A stretch of 38,614 bases of DNA, from the IMG/VR virus record IMGVR_UViG_2554235189_000017, positions 1-38,614 of that record, one strand, 5' to 3'. How positions within the stretch are numbered: position 1 is the stretch's first letter; each line of letters begins with the position of its first letter. The position numbers and the translations under genes are program-made. Of this stretch, positions 25,627 to 35,349 are shown one piece after another. Source of the DNA: a virus (lineage: Duplodnaviria; Heunggongvirae; Uroviricota; Caudoviricetes). The notes below the pieces were generated by a model. It was not told where the DNA came from. It saw only the letters and a list, made by a program, of their open reading frames with translations, and did no database searches.

Positions 25627-25897
25627 TATTCACCTTTATCGCGAACACCTTTACCGGTTTATCGCCGAAGTGGGGATGTGTGATTGTCTTGATTTCATAT
25701 CCGTCATACGGGACGTCAATTCTGCGGCTGGAATCGTCGCGCTTCGGATATCCCTTTGTGATAATCAGGCGGTCATATTCCCGGAGCATAATTCGCTTAT
25801 TCCAGTAGTCATTACACAGGCGATACTCTTCCGTTTTCTCCCCGCGAATCATGGCATCGAAGTATTCACCTTTGACGGCAAGTTGAAGGTTAGCCAC
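25616..25897 (-). CDS. Hypothetical protein, possibly ASCH/DUF3850-like (93 aa)
   Basis: Small coupled ORF; domain assignment from memory only. Confidence 0.45.
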   Translation of the reverse strand: MANLQLAVKGEYFDAMIRGEKTEEYRLCNDYWNKRIMLREYDRLIITKGYPKRDDSSRRIDVPYDGYEIKTITHPHFGDKPVKVFAIKVNIDG

Positions 25898-27071
25898 GGT
25901 TAACCTCCTGTGGCGGCTCCGGTAGCGGCATCCAGTGGGTTACATTGCGGCTCTGCGTTTCGAAGAACTCCTCACCATTGCGGACGACATCAAAAAACTC
26001 TCCGTCCCGATATTGCGCATAAAGAACGAATGCGCCATCACATAAAATAATTACGTGCTGACCATCATTTGGCATTCGCTCACTACAGCTTATCCAACCA
26101 TCCGGAGTTACCGGAGAATTGCCATTTACCAAGTCAGCTCGAACATATAGCGTGTCATCATGGTGCTGATTGTGGCTGCACCACGTTAATTCGCTTAACT
26201 CGCCATCTTCTGGCCATACTCCAGCTGTTTGCAGCCAGATATGGGCTGGCGCATCCTGGCAAGGTGTATTAACTGGAAACTTGTAAGTTTGGCTTACAGG
26301 TTGGCTACCCTGAAGCATGGCAGCGTGGCAGGCATACTCAACGCCCTTAACTGCATCTGCGCAGTAGTTATAGCGATTGCATTCCACTAATTTCCGTTTG
26401 AGTTTTTCAATTGCCTGCGCGACATCAGCCTGTATTACAGGAACTGGCGGAACGGCTGTTTGCTCTCGAACGTCATTAGTCGCTATCGGTTCTGCTGCCA
26501 ACTGACTGGCATATTTGTTAATGGTAACGATAAGCTCTTGCTCAGCCTCATCCAGACAATCACCGATACCTCGCCTGTCACCGTCAAAATCATCGAAATC
26601 AGCACGAATCTTGGCAACCTTCTGGATTGCGGACAACACCTCACTAGGAATTACCGGATAGTTGGTTGACGAACTCTTGTTTTCCCGAAAGTTTCCGGAC
26701 TGAAGCATGGCGGCGCGGCAGGCGTTCCAGCCTCTCACCTCTGCAATAGCGGCAACAGCATCAACCGCGTACATGCTAAGAGGATTAGGCATTGGTTTTT
26801 CTTCCGGTACTACTGGAACGGGTGGAGCGGCGTAGACCTCAATAATTCCATTATCAATAGGCCATTCTCCATCCTTGAGGTAGTCACTTGTGCCGTCAAC
26901 TTGCTGTTCTGCAATGTGGAATGCACCTATTGGTTTTGCTTCCAGCGATGCCAGAGCAATTCGTGCCAGTTCTTCCGCTTCTTCTGCTGGCAGTACAACG
27001 TTGCTACCAGGTCCGTATGTTTCGCGCCACTGCTTGATTGTCAGCAGTCGCTCTTTGGTAATAGTGGTCAT
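25890..27071 (-). CDS. Hypothetical protein with internal duplication and C-terminal DUF551-like domain (393 aa)
   Basis: Repeated segments (NACRAAMLQSGN / YACHAAMLQGSQ) mirrored in DNA at about 26310 and 26700; C-terminal HWMPLPEPP. Confidence 0.55.
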   Translation of the reverse strand: MTTITKERLLTIKQWRETYGPGSNVVLPAEEAEELARIALASLEAKPIGAFHIAEQQVDGTSDYLKDGEWPIDNGIIEVYAAPPVPVVPEEKPMPNPLSMYAVDAVAAIAEVRGWNACRAAMLQSGNFRENKSSSTNYPVIPSEVLSAIQKVAKIRADFDDFDGDRRGIGDCLDEAEQELIVTINKYASQLAAEPIATNDVREQTAVPPVPVIQADVAQAIEKLKRKLVECNRYNYCADAVKGVEYACHAAMLQGSQPVSQTYKFPVNTPCQDAPAHIWLQTAGVWPEDGELSELTWCSHNQHHDDTLYVRADLVNGNSPVTPDGWISCSERMPNDGQHVIILCDGAFVLYAQYRDGEFFDVVRNGEEFFETQSRNVTHWMPLPEPPQEVNRG

Positions 27072-27081
27072 GTGTTACTCC

Positions 27082-27345
27082 TTAACCCGCAGTGCTTTCA
27101 ACTGACGAGGGGAACAAAATCTTTTCTTCAAATCCGGCATTCATATCATGGACAGCAACACACCAATCCATTGACGAACGATTATCAAGAGCCTCCATGA
27201 TTTCATCCATGCGGCGTAGGTCATACAGGTAAATGTTTTTATCGCCAATGGTGTAAAAACCAATTTTTTTCGGTGACGGGCAGCGATCAAGAACTTCCTG
27301 TAATTCGTTCAACCATGCCCGTTCTTTTTTTATCAAAGTTGCCAT
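27082..27345 (-). CDS. Hypothetical protein (88 aa)
   Basis: Start at MATLIKK with AAGGAAA RBS; the longer track ORF would overlap the upstream gene. Confidence 0.5.
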   Translation of the reverse strand: MATLIKKERAWLNELQEVLDRCPSPKKIGFYTIGDKNIYLYDLRRMDEIMEALDNRSSMDWCVAVHDMNAGFEEKILFPSSVESTAG

Positions 27346-27346
27346 A

Positions 27347-27565
27347 TCAGTTTTCCTTATACGGATTAATTTTATTGTGCAGTGTGTTGAACGACGCCCA
27401 TACCACGTCGTTATACAATTCAATAACTGGTTCAATTATTTTCCCGATTGCCCAGACAAAAATTAGCGGGGATATCGGTATCATCAACACGATAAACAGA
27501 ATGAGAAACAAAAATTCTGTCGCTCTACTTTTTCGCGGATATTCTTTTCTGAATAATGTAGGCAC
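27347..27565 (-). CDS. Small single-pass membrane protein (72 aa)
   Basis: One strongly hydrophobic segment; tightly packed in operon. Confidence 0.5.
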   Translation of the reverse strand: MPTLFRKEYPRKSRATEFLFLILFIVLMIPISPLIFVWAIGKIIEPVIELYNDVVWASFNTLHNKINPYKEN

Positions 27566-27566
27566 A

Positions 27567-27782
27567 TCACTCTCCTTTGTTGCTTCTCAAAATTTTATGC
27601 CCTGGCGCAAAAGCACGCGTTTTGTCGACGCTTATTCGCCACCCATCTTTACGTGCCTCTTTTGCACAGCCAGCCCATGACGTACCGATATACTCACCGA
27701 AGTCTGGCACTGGATATACACCTTCCGTACACTGGCGGCAGTCACAATAGAGATGCATGGTGTAACTTGCGGCAATAGCCAT
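27567..27782 (-). CDS. Hypothetical Cys-containing protein (71 aa)
   Basis: Start ATG preceded by the conserved junction sequence. Confidence 0.45.
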   Translation of the reverse strand: MAIAASYTMHLYCDCRQCTEGVYPVPDFGEYIGTSWAGCAKEARKDGWRISVDKTRAFAPGHKILRSNKGE

Positions 27783-27783
27783 A

Positions 27784-28281
27784 TCACTCTCCTTTGATGC
27801 GAATGCCAGTGGTACTCATTCTCCTGATTTCCCAGAGCACACGAGGAACACCACCGTTTCCGACCGGATCGCGTTTACTCCGCAGGGCGACGCTTGATTC
27901 CGCCCAGCTTTTTCTTGGAGGAAGCTCTTTCACACGAACAAAACCAGCTGCGCGAAGAGATGCTCCTGATTCATCTGCCCGGGTGTACGTAATACAACGT
28001 TGATAACCCATAGCCTTTGCTGCCCGCCAGACAGCACCATAAAGCGCGCTGTTAGCGTTGCGTTCTCCTGTGGTACATGTGCGATTTACTTCAAGCGTTA
28101 ATCCATCGTCCAAATGTCGTGCAACAGGTCTACCGGCTGTCGCCACACCTATCAATTCTCCGGCATCATTTCTCAGACCAATGCTGAATTTATGCCCAAC
28201 AGGTGGTTTATTGTGTCGGTGATGTCTGGATATAAACGCCTTCGCAACACGAAGAGTAACCGGTGAAATCTGCACTCTCAC
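27784..28281 (-). CDS. Hypothetical protein (165 aa) ending in GIRIKGE
   Basis: GTG start overlapping upstream TGA; conserved HRH-containing N-terminal region; function unknown. Confidence 0.5.
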   Translation of the reverse strand: MRVQISPVTLRVAKAFISRHHRHNKPPVGHKFSIGLRNDAGELIGVATAGRPVARHLDDGLTLEVNRTCTTGERNANSALYGAVWRAAKAMGYQRCITYTRADESGASLRAAGFVRVKELPPRKSWAESSVALRSKRDPVGNGGVPRVLWEIRRMSTTGIRIKGE

Positions 28282-28856
28282 TCTCCTTTGATGCGAATGC
28301 CAGCGGCGCGTGGCACATTAACTTCCACGATGCGCACAGTTGGTTTGTACATCTCAATCGCTGTCAGCCAGTCAGCTCCTGTCATGCGCTTTTCCGCATC
28401 GCCATTAGTCCACTGAACCGGTACACCAATAGCCTTCATCGCGATTTCTATTTCCCCGGCAATGACGCTTTTTCCGCAACCAGTAAAACCAGAAACAACG
28501 ACAAGAACTTCGCCCTTGGCTGGTTTTATTTCCCGTGCTTCCAGTTCTGCAATGCGCTTCTCTGCGGCTTCCAGCTCAACTCTCAGCTTCCCAACCGTAA
28601 GAGCAATATCCTCGTTCTCCTGGTCACGGCGTTTGATGTATTGCTGGTTTCTTTCCCGTTCATCCAGTAGTGCCAGCACGGTTTCTGGTCCGGTCAGAAA
28701 TTTGAAGGCGTTGAGCGCATCAATATCTACACCGTAATCTTTAAGTTCCTGTTCACTTAACAAATCATCATCAGCTGGCAACATTAACAGGCGTTCCATT
28801 GCTGGAATTGCACGTTCCGCCGCCTCACGCAGTGCCTGGTAATTAATTTTGCTCAC
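28278..28856 (-). CDS. Ead/Ea22-like protein with Walker-A (P-loop) motif, ending in GIRIKGE
   Basis: N-terminus MSKINYQALREAAERA typical of Ea22-like proteins; GFTGCGKS Walker A. Confidence 0.55.
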   Translation of the reverse strand: MSKINYQALREAAERAIPAMERLLMLPADDDLLSEQELKDYGVDIDALNAFKFLTGPETVLALLDERERNQQYIKRRDQENEDIALTVGKLRVELEAAEKRIAELEAREIKPAKGEVLVVVSGFTGCGKSVIAGEIEIAMKAIGVPVQWTNGDAEKRMTGADWLTAIEMYKPTVRIVEVNVPRAAGIRIKGE

Positions 28857-29353
28857 TGGTTGCCTCCTTTGCGAAGCTGGGCAGCAAAGTCACGGATAGT
28901 GCCATCAAGGTCTGGACACAACAGATTGTCAGCAAACATCTCAACCCCCTGCGCCCGTACTTCAGCCAGAAAAGCATCGGTAGCTGGAGTTTCGCTGTGG
29001 TGTAGGGCATCGTTGATAATCATTGCAGCAACACCAGCCTGCCCTGCATCCGTGACCGACACATGCTCAAGAGTTACGGCCATTGCGTGTTTCAGCCCCG
29101 CATTCTCCGCCGCCAGCGCCGAAAACTTCTCGTGTGCCAACTTAACAGCCGCATCAGCCTGCTTAATTGACTCAGTCGCTCTCTGGTGGTCTTCGGCCAG
29201 CGCATTAGCACGCACCAGTTGCACTTCCGGTTGCGTTGCCAAATCGCTGATCAGCTTTGCCACACTGCGCATATCAACGGCACCACATTCTGCTTTCAGT
29301 TCCGAAGCCATCTCATGCCCGGCGGAAACTAACCCTTTGATATTACTTTCCAT
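28853..29353 (-). CDS. Hypothetical protein (166 aa)
   Basis: Coupled ORF in nin-like region. Confidence 0.5.
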   Translation of the reverse strand: MESNIKGLVSAGHEMASELKAECGAVDMRSVAKLISDLATQPEVQLVRANALAEDHQRATESIKQADAAVKLAHEKFSALAAENAGLKHAMAVTLEHVSVTDAGQAGVAAMIINDALHHSETPATDAFLAEVRAQGVEMFADNLLCPDLDGTIRDFAAQLRKGGNQ

Positions 29354-29414
29354 CTTTACCCTCGCTTATCCACATAACTTATTGATTACATTGATAACTA
29401 AAAAGATCGTCGAT

Positions 29415-29762
29415 TCAGAACTCTTCGATGTTCCAGCCACCACCTGCTTTCTTTGGTTTAACCGTTACCCCGATGATTCGGAACGGATACTGATCTGCGG
29501 CGACTTTGGTTTTCACCCTGGCGTCGTCGGTCCAGAATCCCCCTTTCACTTCGTGCAGTTCCATCTCTCCGGTGGCGAGCATCACAGCGAAATCGGGCGT
29601 ATAAAACGTGTTATCAGCTAACCGCAGCTTGATACCCTCGAATCGATACCAGGCGATTTCCCCTGCACGTTTACGCTGCTCAAGGTGCTGGCAATACGCA
29701 GATTCTGTTTTGTTCATCTGGCCTGTTTTGAGTCGACCAAGAGCCTGTATCTGTTTTCTCAT
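29415..29762 (-). CDS. Hypothetical protein, possibly DUF1064-type nuclease-like (115 aa)
   Basis: First gene after P; family assignment from memory only. Confidence 0.45.
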   Translation of the reverse strand: MRKQIQALGRLKTGQMNKTESAYCQHLEQRKRAGEIAWYRFEGIKLRLADNTFYTPDFAVMLATGEMELHEVKGGFWTDDARVKTKVAADQYPFRIIGVTVKPKKAGGGWNIEEF

Positions 29763-29765
29763 GAT

Positions 29766-29842
29766 TTACCTCTGAGGTAATTAAAAACCACATAAGACAC
29801 GAAATCAATAGAGTTTAGAATATTTTGTTACCCATCAGGTAA
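29766..29842. promoter_or_regulatory. Two operator-like palindromes (TTACCTCTGAGGTAA 29766-29780; TTACCcatcaGGTAA 29828-29842) in the P / nin intergenic region
   Basis: Both perfect TTACC-N5-GGTAA; the first lies 4 nt upstream of the start codon. Confidence 0.5.
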
Positions 29843-30680: not shown

Positions 30681-31477
30681 GCTTCAGGGCTGTTCCAGTG
30701 CGGAACGTTGTTATCAGGTAATGTTGATTGCTTCTGTCTGCTAATCTGCAGCCGCCTTGCCAGCTTCTGCTCCCACTGTGCCTGATGGTATGCCTTACCC
30801 TCAGCCATCCAGTAAATTCTGAACTCTGCAAGTTCCTGTGCCGTTGGCAGACTGTCCAGGTAGATCCCCTGCAATGAGCTTTTCCGAAGAAAGTCATCTG
30901 ATGGCTGCCATTGTTCATGCATGACAAATTTGCCTAATTGCCCTGGCCCACCAAGAGGAACAAAGTTATTCATCACGGCGTTGTTTGCGCCGGGGTCATG
31001 ATGCACAGAATCCCCGTTTTTTGTCCTGCTCTCCCTCTCTTGGTTAAATGACTGGTTATATGACTGGTTCTGGATCCCGTTTTTGGGATCATTCAACATC
31101 CCGTTTTTGGGATCATTCAACATCCCGTTTTTGGGTATATTCCCGTTTTCGGTAACATTACCGTTTTCGGGTTCATTACCCCCTTCCCGGTTGCCTTTAA
31201 TGTTCCCGTTTTTGGTTATATTAAGAGAGAAAACCCGCACTCTTTTCGTCGCTCCCTTTCTCTCTCCGGTATCTGAAATAAGCCCCATTTTCATGAGCGA
31301 TATAAGCCCGGCCTGCACGGTTTTTTTATTCAGGCAAGTGTCTTTAACGAGGCGTTCTATGCTGGGGTAGCAGAGGTTATATTCATCGGCTCTGTCAGCC
31401 ATCGAGAGCAGTATGAGCTTTAATGATGAGCTGCCTGGATCTGTCTCCCAAGCCCAATCTGTTGCATGTCTGCTCAT
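30662..31477 (-). CDS. Replication initiator O-like protein containing the origin iterons
   Basis: N-terminal HTH-like domain, Asn/Gly-rich repeat linker (NGNIPKNGMLNDPKNGMLNDPKNG), C-terminal region preceding P. Confidence 0.7.
   Translation of the reverse strand: MSRHATDWAWETDPGSSSLKLILLSMADRADEYNLCYPSIERLVKDTCLNKKTVQAGLISLMKMGLISDTGERKGATKRVRVFSLNITKNGNIKGNREGGNEPENGNVTENGNIPKNGMLNDPKNGMLNDPKNGIQNQSYNQSFNQERESRTKNGDSVHHDPGANNAVMNNFVPLGGPGQLGKFVMHEQWQPSDDFLRKSSLQGIYLDSLPTAQELAEFRIYWMAEGKAYHQAQWEQKLARRLQISRQKQSTLPDNNVPHWNSPEAWEDFL
31074..31217. repeat. Origin-like iteron array inside the O-like gene
   Basis: Two exact tandem 24-mers ATCCCGTTTTTGGGATCATTCAAC (31074-31097, 31098-31121) plus 3-4 degenerate CCCGTTTT(C/T)GG copies. 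Confidence 0.7.
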
Positions 31478-33121: not shown

Positions 33122-33421
33122 ATGAACGTTAATCAGCAGAAAAATCTTCAAAAAATCATGCTGGCATTCGACAAGGACTACCGCCTGTCAGAACAGCTAT
33201 ATGACCGACAAGTTGAACTGATCGATAGCATCCGACTTCATCAACTGTCCTCAACTTTCGACGTTGTAACAGGCAAAGGCGTTCGTCAGGAAGTGCTGGA
33301 GGCTGCTAAAGACAGCCCTGAGTTCGAAGAACTGATGGATGCCTACCGGCGCGAGGCAATGGCAATTATAGCGCGCTGGGATCTGGCGGATCAGCTTGAT
33401 GGTCAGAGGGACGCGGCATGA
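33122..33421 (+). CDS. Hypothetical protein (99 aa)
   Basis: GGGAGGG RBS then ATG. Confidence 0.5.
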   Translation: MNVNQQKNLQKIMLAFDKDYRLSEQLYDRQVELIDSIRLHQLSSTFDVVTGKGVRQEVLEAAKDSPEFEELMDAYRREAMAIIARWDLADQLDGQRDAA

Positions 33422-34317
33422 TGCGGAACGCTGGAATCATGGATAGAACAAAATACATCGGAGGAAGCGATGTTGCAGGGATTCTTGGAATTAGCCCATG
33501 GCGCACCCCGCTTGAGGTTTATCTGGATAAGGTCCAGCCACGTGTCAAACCAGTAGACCCAAGCAAGCAGAAAGTTTTCACGCGTGGCCAGCGTATGGAA
33601 CCATACGTAATAGACCTGCTTTCTGAGGAAACAGGGATGGAAATCGTTCATCGCGGAAACCGCTATATCCACCGTGATTACGATTTTATTGCAGCTGAGA
33701 TCGATGCAGAAGCAGCGTCAGGCGAGAACATTGAGATCAAAACAGTTAGTCCGTTCAAAGCCAAAGAATGGGGAGAAATCCAGACAGATGCAATTCCTGT
33801 GCATTACACGGCCCAGGCCATGCACGGGTTGATGGTTACAAACAAACAGGTATGCGTTTTCGGTGTGCTTATCGGTGGCGACGACTTCCGAATCTATCGG
33901 GTTGAGCGTGATGAAGAAACTATCCAGGCGATCTTAGAAAAAGAAATCGCTTTCTGGGACCGAGTGAAAAATCTTAACCCGCCGGAAGCTACCAGCGTAA
34001 GCGATGTATCGCTGATGTTTGAGAAAGATGCCGGGACAAGTATCGAGGCTGACGGAAAGGCACTCGCACTATTCAACGATCTACGAGACATGAAATCACG
34101 CAGAAAATCACTGGAAGAAGAAATAGCTATATCAGAAGAGAAGCTGAAGATGTACATGCAAGAGCACTCAGTCCTGACCCTGGACGGAAAGCCGCTCTGC
34201 ACATGGAAATCTCAGATCAGCAACAGATTCGACCAGAAGCTATTCCAGTCAGTACACCCTGAGTTATTCGAAAAATTCAAAACAACAACGACACAACGCG
34301 TCTTCAGAATGAAGTAA
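33418..34317 (+). CDS. YqaJ-like viral exonuclease (lambda Exo functional analogue)
   Basis: 299 aa, YqaJ-family N-terminus, immediately upstream of RecT. Confidence 0.7.
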   Translation: MMRNAGIMDRTKYIGGSDVAGILGISPWRTPLEVYLDKVQPRVKPVDPSKQKVFTRGQRMEPYVIDLLSEETGMEIVHRGNRYIHRDYDFIAAEIDAEAASGENIEIKTVSPFKAKEWGEIQTDAIPVHYTAQAMHGLMVTNKQVCVFGVLIGGDDFRIYRVERDEETIQAILEKEIAFWDRVKNLNPPEATSVSDVSLMFEKDAGTSIEADGKALALFNDLRDMKSRRKSLEEEIAISEEKLKMYMQEHSVLTLDGKPLCTWKSQISNRFDQKLFQSVHPELFEKFKTTTTQRVFRMK

Positions 34318-34326
34318 GGAGAAAAA

Positions 34327-35349
34327 ATGTCTATCAATGCACTTAAGGCAGCGGCTACCGGTAACCAAGTTGCACATCATAATGAGAAACCAACAACTCT
34401 GGCCGGACTTCTGGCAGACCCAAAAATTAAAGCTCAGATGGCTTTGGCACTTCCAAAGCACATGACAGCAGACCGTCTGGCGCGCATAGCAACCACAGAG
34501 ATCAGAAAGGTTCCAAAACTTGCATCATGCGACCAAGCCAGCTTCCTGGGGGCAATTATGCAATGTGCCCAATTGGGTCTTGAACCAGGCGGAGCTCTTG
34601 GACACGCTTACCTGATACCGTTCGACAAACGCCAGAAAGTAAATGGAAGATGGGAAACCGTATCTACAGAAGCACAGCTGATTATCGGCTATCGCGGAAT
34701 GATTGACCTTGCCCGCCGCTCTGGGCAGATCCTGAGTATCTCGGCTCGTACCGTACATACAAACGACAAATTCAGCTACTCATACGGCCTGGAAGAAACG
34801 CTCGAGCATTTACCTTGCGAAACAGGTGACCGCGGAGAATTAACGCACGTTTACGCCGTTGCACGACTGAAAGATGGCGGAGTCCAATTTGAAGTTATGA
34901 GCCGGGCAGACGTTGAGAAAGTTCGTGCACTGAGCAAAGCCGGTAGCAGTGGCCCATGGGTTGATCACTTCGATGAGATGGCTAAAAAAACAGTAATTCG
35001 CCGACTGTTCAAATATCTTCCTGTTTCTATTGAAATGCAGAAGGCTGTTGTTATGGATGAGCGCGCTGAAGCTGGACTTAGCCAAGATAACGCAGCTGTT
35101 ATCACTGGTGAATATTCCGTAGTTGACGATGAGCGTCAACACCTGTCGCCAATTTCAGATTCAGAACGAGAAGAAGCTCGAGAATATATCATCGCGATAC
35201 TTAATAGCCTGGATCCATCTGCTGAAGATGCAAAAACGATGTTCAAGCGCGCTGAAAATGAAATTAACACCATGGCTGAAAAGCTCGGTGATGAATATCA
35301 CCAAAAATTCATGATGACGCTTAACGATATGCGTCCAGAATTCGAGTAA
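34327..35349 (+). CDS. recT: RecT-family single-strand annealing recombinase
   Basis: 340 aa with RecT-family core; paired with the YqaJ-like exonuclease. Confidence 0.75.
   Translation: MSINALKAAATGNQVAHHNEKPTTLAGLLADPKIKAQMALALPKHMTADRLARIATTEIRKVPKLASCDQASFLGAIMQCAQLGLEPGGALGHAYLIPFDKRQKVNGRWETVSTEAQLIIGYRGMIDLARRSGQILSISARTVHTNDKFSYSYGLEETLEHLPCETGDRGELTHVYAVARLKDGGVQFEVMSRADVEKVRALSKAGSSGPWVDHFDEMAKKTVIRRLFKYLPVSIEMQKAVVMDERAEAGLSQDNAAVITGEYSVVDDERQHLSPISDSEREEAREYIIAILNSLDPSAEDAKTMFKRAENEINTMAEKLGDEYHQKFMMTLNDMRPEFE

Follow-up and report, generated by a model that had tools for sequence, protein, structure and literature searches.

A conserved gene-boundary sequence in the ea22-type accessory region of enterobacterial temperate phages and its probable role as a recombination seam

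Introduction

Short conserved boundary ('linker') sequences belong to the modular theory (Susskind & Botstein 1978; Clark et al. 2001 on HK620, J Mol Biol 311:657; both as cited in PMC3029335 and PMC2327257). Such sequences are generally called undetectable at most mosaic joints (PMC3029335), and since 1978 there has been debate on whether mosaicism originates at conserved boundary sequences or from random illegitimate joining. The element described here, referred to as the linker, is a repeat of 25-26 nt at the ends of small accessory genes in IMGVR_UViG_2554235189_000017 (38,614 nt; the whole of this stretch is referred to as the window), a prophage of Escherichia coli. The linker resembles the boundary sequences of the modular theory in being short, conserved between phages and situated at a gene or module boundary with non-homologous flanks, where homologous exchange of modules is proposed to take place. 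It also occurs with many flank combinations, and the mosaic block ends of close relatives coincide with it. Unlike these sequences, it is part of the reading frame of the upstream gene, for which it provides the stop, and also serves as ribosome-binding site. Its occurrence in lambda-like, Stx, P22-like, P1-like and epsilon15-like phages is documented, and its reassortment has been quantified. The concept is already known, and the linker is a well-documented example of a conserved boundary sequence, not a new kind of element. The gain is a modest one, since the case documents and explains and overturns nothing.

The upstream gene at most of these boundaries belongs to the Ead/Ea22 family. All Ea22 variants were reported to end in K/R-G-E despite unrelated C-terminal domains, the significance of this being described as unknown (Dydecka et al. 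2020; PMC7093339), and the mosaicism of Ea22 was also treated in a nuclear magnetic resonance study of 2024 (PMC10834534). The published '+GE' tripeptide comprises the same residues as the linker-encoded end (AGIRIKGE in lambda Ea22). Here it is read as the translation of AA(A/G)-GGA-G(N)(N)-TGA, with embedded Shine-Dalgarno sequence (SD) and stop, and it is found on non-Ea22 proteins as well. In the window, both the Ea22-like and the Mom-like protein end in IKGE, and the phrog_926 protein ends in NKGE.

Three further systems are comparable in part. As in integron cassettes with their attC sites, an array of promoterless accessory genes is bounded by a recurring short sequence and is found in many orders and combinations. 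Unlike integrons, the locus lacks both an integron integrase and an imperfect palindrome of the attC type (z = 0.18); the bounding sequence is coding and carries the ribosome-binding site, and general or short-homology recombination is the presumed route of exchange. Translationally coupled overlaps (ATGA, TGATG), such as those of nin-type early operons, share with the linker an SD inside the upstream open reading frame (ORF) and a stop and start within a few nucleotides, and the same genes use ATGA elsewhere. Ordinary overlaps, however, comprise a few nucleotides and are not conserved between unrelated gene pairs, whereas the linker is an identical block of 26-35 nt across unrelated pairs. 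Morons, reportedly described by Juhala et al. in 2000, are likewise extra accessory genes between conserved phage genes. They carry their own promoter and terminator, whereas the cassettes described here have no such signals above background and depend on the operon and on the ribosome-binding site of the linker. For short or diverged homology, Rad52-like phage annealing proteins are more efficient recombinases than RecA (PMC3945230; PMC2327257). A literature search for GIRIKGE or for the 12-nt core of the linker, AAAGGAGAGTGA, returned no paper with the peptide and only DNA-string matches that were not on phages; Clark et al. 2001 and Hatfull & Hendrix 2011 were beyond the reach of this search.

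Organization of the linker

The initial annotation placed a 25-nt sequence, CACTCTCCTTTGATGCGAATGCCAG, at about 27785 and 28282, with a shorter copy near 27569. Two exact plus-strand copies are present (27785-27809 and 28279-28303), compared to none expected in 100 shuffles. The second copy starts at 28279, not at 28282. The longest exact repeat is 26 nt in length, TCACTCTCCTTTGATGCGAATGCCAG, at 27784-27809 and 28278-28303, and it grows to 29 nt when one mismatch is allowed (family D3 of the repeat finder; copies A and B in Table 1). The shorter copy is real as well and is located at 27567-27579, with only 13 nt in common, TCACTCTCCTTTG. The 12-nt core occurs three times against 0.19 expected, and three occurrences were reached in 0 of 100 shuffles. 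The two long copies start 494 nt apart, and the DNA between them is not duplicated.

All genes around the repeat are on the minus strand. The long copies constitute the last codons of two ORFs, both ending GIRIKGE-TGA; the coding-strand reading, CTGGCATTCGCATCAAAGGAGAGTGA, is translated as (L/A)-G-I-R-I-K-G-E-stop. The two proteins, one Ead/Ea22-like and the other Mom-like, had been described as otherwise unrelated, and this is borne out by BLASTP, in which the seven C-terminal residues are the sole similarity. The AAGGAG lies inside the upstream ORF, 7 nt (copy A) or 6 nt (copy B) ahead of the next start, within the 5-9 nt range of an SD. From this position it would drive translation of the downstream gene, which is probably translationally coupled to the upstream one. 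The claim that AAGGAG precedes the next gene thus holds, while the claimed overlap of stop and start does not: the gap is 1 nt at 27782 (TGA-T-ATG) and 2 nt at 28275 (TGA-GA-GTG). In a mechanical ORF list, the Mom-like ORF has 165 aa (27784-28281) and a GTG start overlapping the stop. Homologues have an ATG at the second position (TGAGAATGCAAATT), and therefore the true start is at 28275, adjacent to the stop. The arrangement TGA-N-RTG, with a 1-nt gap, is found in 114 of the 122 listed junctions. Lambda-type junctions without a neighbouring gene, a single junction truncated at a contig end and copy A of the window, with its 2-nt gap, are among the other eight.

The SD is unpaired in the predicted fold. 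No unusual RNA structure beyond that of shuffles was found at the linker region (fold z = 0.18), no inverted-repeat or palindromic structure was detected, and Rfam covariance models gave no match at E ≤ 1 in 26500-29800. An RNA element was rejected as an explanation on account of the lack of stable structure and of an Rfam match.

Flanking genes, linkage and close relatives

The initial annotation proposed a linker for the swapping of gene modules and a search of related phages for it at other gene boundaries. It was found at other boundaries, which supports the proposal. A motif-anchored sample comprised 137 unique junction contexts, giving 9,316 pairs. In 80% of these pairs only the linker is shared, in 7.7% only the left flank, and in 3.6% only the right flank. 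The 137 junctions combine 14 left types and 26 right types into 67 combinations, with 102 four-gamete quadruples. The enlarged sample, allowing up to 3 mismatches, contains 184 unique junctions with 17 left (upstream) and 28 right (downstream) types. In this sample all variable sites up to position 0 track the type of the left flank (adjusted mutual information 0.23-0.68, against at most 0.11 for the right flank). Positions 27 and 31-40 track the type of the right flank (0.34-0.59, against at most 0.11 for the left), and the start codon (positions 28-30) hardly varies. The 26 nt between the flanks are almost invariant. As left-linked sites end at position 0 and right-linked sites begin at position 27, the switch of linkage lies across these 26 nt. 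The proposal of module swapping therefore stands with regard to the 14-17 upstream contexts, the 26-28 downstream genes and the block ends within the linker; it requires correction in that the linker is not free-standing, being the native 3' end of most genes of the Ead/Ea22 family, lambda ea22 included.

Upstream, the tail is mostly carried by Ead/Ea22 proteins, whose C-terminal domains are unrelated, besides a Mom-like protein and an HNH_3/AP2-like endonuclease. Among the genes downstream are those for a dATP/dGTP pyrophosphohydrolase-DUF551 protein and a ClpX-zinc-finger protein, and many without known function. The HNH_3/AP2-like endonuclease gene is present at one locus (L064; IMGVR_UViG_2925891887_000006) and ends GVAGIRIKGE. 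It raises the possibility that homing endonucleases ride in linker cassettes or stimulate cassette exchange.

Close relatives provide both occupied and empty forms of the site. In the prophage of E. coli MINF_2E (L283), the sole block of 98.9% identity in the area corresponds to window positions 27780-28310, which is exactly linker, Mom-like gene and linker; the Ea22 C-terminal domain before the block and the gene after it differ from those of the window. The homologous blocks of phiV10 end at 27795 and begin at 28277, both within the linkers. Three other loci (L012, L015 and L118) carry the Ea22 C-terminal domain of the window (88-100% identity in 50-nt bins over 250 nt upstream), followed by a single linker and the phrog_926 gene. 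These three are empty-site alleles of the arrangement of the window, in which two linkers enclose the Mom-like gene as a cassette.

The exact linker is present in at least 120 IMG/VR viral contigs, and a BLAST search with a 37-mer query gave 375 phage records with the linker, among them lambda-type phages, many Stx phages, P22-like SE1, P1-like P7, and phiV10. Nearly all linker-bearing phages have one copy per genome. A larger region was matched in P1-like D6 and RCS47. The chain of the lambda Ea22 C-terminal domain (PDB 8DSX) ends MMSDAGIRIKGE, i.e. AGIRIKGE, and the exact 26-mer is found in HK620 at the junction of hkaG (Ea22-like) and hkaF. Pieces of window positions 27300-29400 are present in 3,009 of the 5,426 complete E. 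coli genomes; the whole 2.1-kb arrangement at ≥ 80% coverage is present in none of these 5,426 genomes and in none of 50,697 phage records. Common pieces without the whole arrangement show extreme local mosaicism. Exact matches in non-enterobacterial genomes (L284-L321; Streptomyces, Shewanella, Bacillus, Prevotella and others) are mostly on contigs of ~48.5 kb or of ~1 kb or less, several at ~1x coverage; they are almost certainly lambda DNA contamination of the assemblies and contribute little on host range.

Recombination at the linker

The repeat is best explained as a short conserved gene-boundary sequence of the ea22-type accessory region of enterobacterial temperate phages, which probably serves as a seam for homologous recombination. 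One stretch of 26-35 bp carries the last codons of the upstream gene (R-A-A-G-I-R-I-K-G-E), the SD AAGGAG and the TGA, with the next start 1-2 nt further on. Because this stretch is common to phages with unrelated flanks, it could act as a homology patch for recombination between phages and prophages. A crossover within the linker would exchange the downstream content, and the linker together with the conserved coiled-coil region of Ea22 would allow exchange of the Ea22 C-terminal domain upstream. Neither exchange would disturb the reading frame, the ribosome-binding site or the spacing of stop and start, so that every recombinant would be expression-competent. Combinatorial flanks, the switch of linkage, block ends within the linker and occupied and empty alleles are observed; that homologous recombination within the linker has produced them is suggested by these population patterns. 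The exchange would probably be the work of phage single-strand annealing proteins, of which the window itself encodes one (RecT), or of RecA. The RecE and RecT proteins of the window are candidate enzymes for short-homology exchange at the linker.

Several points weigh against a recombination seam. The sample consists mostly of E. coli prophages and was in part gathered by exact motif, which made the 26 nt look more conserved than they are. Hyper-conservation of the linker is not observed, the mean pairwise difference being 8-15% for all variants compared to 2.5-5% in homologous flanks, and so there is no need for selection on its sequence beyond the coding and ribosome-binding roles. Special purifying selection on the linker was dropped as a candidate, the linker being no less variable than homologous flanks. 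Several junctions share merely 12-16 nt, which is short for efficient homologous exchange; sharing of this length is largely explicable by the constraints of SD, stop and start. Finally, diverged variants (AAGIKEESE, AAGIGVKGE) retain a weak A-A-G-I..E peptide pattern, and its persistence could reflect a constraint on the Ea22 protein.

The alternative that survives best, though it is considered unlikely, is illegitimate recombination followed by selection. The linker would then be simply the conserved 3' end of ea22 and the position after it a tolerated insertion point, at which random joins survive if they keep the ribosome-binding site; homology would have no mechanistic role. This corresponds to the default assumption of the field, most mosaic joints being without boundary sequences (PMC3029335; PMC2327257), and is in agreement with the junctions that share just 12-16 nt. 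Also, the tail of the Mom-like gene must have come once from a non-homologous join (ATGAGTACC followed by ACTGGC...). Random joins would scatter, however, whereas among the 184 junctions the linkage of left and right flanks switches exactly across 26 nt. Essentially every junction with an adjacent downstream gene has its start 1-2 nt past the stop, the shared block of the MINF_2E prophage ends within ~4 nt of both linkers, and the occupied and empty alleles are precise.

An extension of the homologous-recombination reading would be that the linker and its sibling motifs (the MTTITKE starts and ACRAAMLQ joints described below) are maintained because they promote exchange. They would then form an integrase-free, recombinase-driven cassette system in at least four lineages (lambda/Stx, P22-like, P1-like and epsilon15-like), kept by second-order selection for evolvability and more than a side effect of the coding and ribosome-binding constraints. 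This extension is regarded as unlikely. If true, it would mean an integron-like outcome, i.e. expression-ready shuffling of accessory genes that probably act in host takeover or anti-defence.

In the debate on boundary sequences, the linker represents an unusually clean and abundant positive case, with a seam of ~26 nt, 17 by 28 flank types, at least four lineages, and both occupied and empty alleles. The homology-driven model is therefore directly testable in lambda or phiV10-type phages.

Origin of the C-terminal tail and remaining alternatives

Samples anchored on the Mom-like gene, the phrog_926 gene and the N-terminal part of Ea22 were gathered blind to the linker. Mom-like homologues of 91-99% identity end WEIRRMSTTGIRIKGE and are followed by seven or more different genes. 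Those of 80-87% identity have an ATGA overlap after the end WEIRRMK or RRGV and are without the last 10 aa (STTGIRIKGE). The tail is therefore an acquired add-on, joined just past the ancestral stop region, and it is dispensable for Mom-like homologues. Upstream of the Mom-like genes stands the canonical linker or a variant with an end such as VNIGIKGE, RAAGIKEESE or AAGIGVKGE. In about 20 loci (L121-L200) the canonical linker upstream of the Mom-like gene is replaced by a sibling linker family, GCCGCTGGCATCAAGGAGGAGTCTGAGTGATG, which encodes the end RAAGIKEESE and has a TGATG overlap. More distant relatives carry further linker variants, with the ends AAGIGVKGE and AGIQIQGGE.

The phrog_926 gene is always preceded by AAAGGAG(A/G)(G/C)TGA(T)ATG, whatever the upstream gene (ends HLRTKGE, VNTGIKGG, AMLQGKGG and GIRIKGE). 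Its own end is RSNKGE before the DUF4014 gene and RINK, with an ATGA overlap, before a gene starting MTTIT... The end changes with the following gene, and core copy C thus travels with the downstream DUF4014 gene. This third copy, which contains the SD-stop core only, could also be a case of functional convergence. Variation at the junctions sits in the two spacer bases (KGE, KGD, KGG, KGA), with AAGGAG and TGA fixed, which points to a function at the nucleotide level. When Ea22-family genes were sampled by the N-terminal part, a member of the linker family formed the end of 62 out of 80, and 14 had a DUF551-type end. The linker is accordingly the native end of ea22-type genes, whatever their C-terminal domain. 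The only unrelated secondary acquirers are the Mom-like protein and the one HNH_3/AP2-like protein.

These samples bear on an alternative reading at the protein level, in which the C-terminal GIRIKGE (or '+GE') has a function in Ea22 as a peptide, such as that of an interaction or stability signal, the conservation of the DNA being secondary and the presence on the Mom-like protein incidental. The invariable K/R-G-E end, reported as of unknown significance (PMC7093339), the predominance of the linker-family end among Ea22-family genes and the A-A-G-I..E pattern of diverged variants speak for such a motif. It is nevertheless judged improbable, since the tail is also found on Mom-like and HNH_3/AP2-like proteins otherwise unrelated to Ea22 and is missing from Mom-like homologues of 80-87% identity. 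Moreover, the final residue can be E, D, G or A, with AAGGAG and TGA constant, and several unrelated small genes also end in KGE, each directly ahead of the start of another gene. Under the homologous-recombination reading, the GIRIKGE heptapeptide would largely be a by-product of nucleotide-level features, and the '+GE' end of Ea22 would be simply explained. Annotators and structural biologists should be aware that the last 7-10 residues are encoded by the junction and are not part of the fold.

A target for a site-specific or homing enzyme, for instance an HNH endonuclease that cuts at or near the linker and drives cassette conversion, is very improbable. The endonuclease gene of locus L064 itself bears the tail, and HNH endonuclease genes are annotated beside Ea22/DUF4014 genes in some matches; most linker loci, including that of the window, have no HNH gene nearby, however, and the linker has no inverted-repeat or palindromic structure. 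Chance repetition or a local tandem duplication confined to this genome, which two direct copies 494 nt apart and the single copy of nearly all other genomes would fit, is refuted by the zero matches expected in shuffles, the unduplicated sequence between the copies, the recurrence elsewhere of the linker-Mom-linker unit with other neighbours, and the different flanks of the linker in hundreds of phages, by which the scenario of identical flanks in all relatives is excluded as well.

Genes and other features of the window

The window belongs to the phiV10/epsilon15-like (Uetakevirus-type) prophages of E. coli, with 81-85% coverage and, over the structural genes, 97.5% identity to HEMP4, phiv142-3 and phiV10. 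The repeat belongs to a stretch of small accessory genes that has the terminase on one side and, on the other, the replication genes, comprising an O-like gene with iterons, a P-like gene and a DUF1064 gene. The sole integrase is of the phage type and lies ~9 kb from the linker. Promoter- and terminator-like sites do not exceed shuffle expectation, and the Mom-like cassette is not bracketed by any; a moron or separate transcription unit was rejected on these grounds. The coordinates of the features are listed in Table 1.

Table 1. Linker copies, junctions and associated genes in the window
Feature	Position	Strand	Description
Linker copy A	28278-28306	minus	(A)AGIRIKGE and TGA of Ead/Ea22-like gene; SD AAGGAG at 28283-28288; 7 nt before Mom-like GTG at 28273-28275
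Linker copy B	27784-27812	minus	(T)TGIRIKGE and TGA of Mom-like gene; SD AAGGAG at 27789-27794; 6 nt before phrog_926 ATG at 27780-27782
Core-only copy C, CAAAGGAGAGTGA	27567-27579	minus	phrog_926 gene end RSNKGE-TGA; DUF4014 GTG start at 27563-27565
Degenerate fourth junction, AAGGAAAACTGATATG	27343-27358	minus	DUF4014 end KEN-TGA, then T, then phrog_1714 ATG; layout of core linker, two bases different
Ead/Ea22-like gene, 192 aa	28278-28856	minus	Pfam Ead_Ea22 PF13935, E = 9e-32, residues 2-105
Mom-like gene ('XF1762 family' in RefSeq), 163 aa	27784-28275	minus	PHROG 1384; bracketed by linker copies A and B
phrog_926 gene, 71 aa	27567-27782	minus	Downstream partner of linker copy B; protein end NKGE
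DUF4014 gene, 72 aa	27347-27565	minus	Downstream partner of core copy C
phrog_1714 gene, 87 aa (MATL..)	27082-27345	minus	Elsewhere among the two commonest genes right after the canonical linker
RecE-like exonuclease	33418-34317	plus	Predicted
RecT-like single-strand annealing protein	34327-35349	plus	Predicted

The Ead/Ea22-like gene has a swappable C-terminal domain of ~250 nt with the linker at its end, and no Ead_Ea22 domain was found in the 163-aa Mom-like protein. Residues ~117-128 of the Ea22-like protein (28473-28508, minus strand) form a Walker-A-like string, VVVSGFTGCGKS, within the swappable C-terminal domain; with ~80 aa, this domain seems too short for an NTPase. The junction ahead of the Ea22-like gene, at 28853-28856, encodes the end RKGGNQ with a GTGA overlap, AAAGGAGGCAACCAGTGAGC, and is another type of SD-containing junction.

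Two further motifs resemble boundary sequences and are both located in the gene at 25890-27071 (minus strand), which encodes a DUF551 protein of 393 aa. A 24-nt internal direct repeat at 26310-26333 and 26700-26723 encodes ACHAAMLQ and ACRAAMLQ. Elsewhere (46 contexts in 42 loci), what follows this motif is either the gene end (AAMLQGKE, GKGE or GKGGE) or one of at least five unrelated continuations. It has the appearance of a second boundary motif, which in the window is fused in-frame between domains. The 5' end of the same gene, ATGACCACTATTACCAAAGA (27052-27071; MTTITKE or MTTITRE), is common to genes that diverge fully after ~7 codons (92 unique contexts) and appears to be a conserved start-side boundary sequence. 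Four to five iterons (ATCCCGTTTTTGGGATCATTCAAC and variants) are located at 31074-31223, within the O-like replication initiator gene, in the manner of a lambda-style origin.

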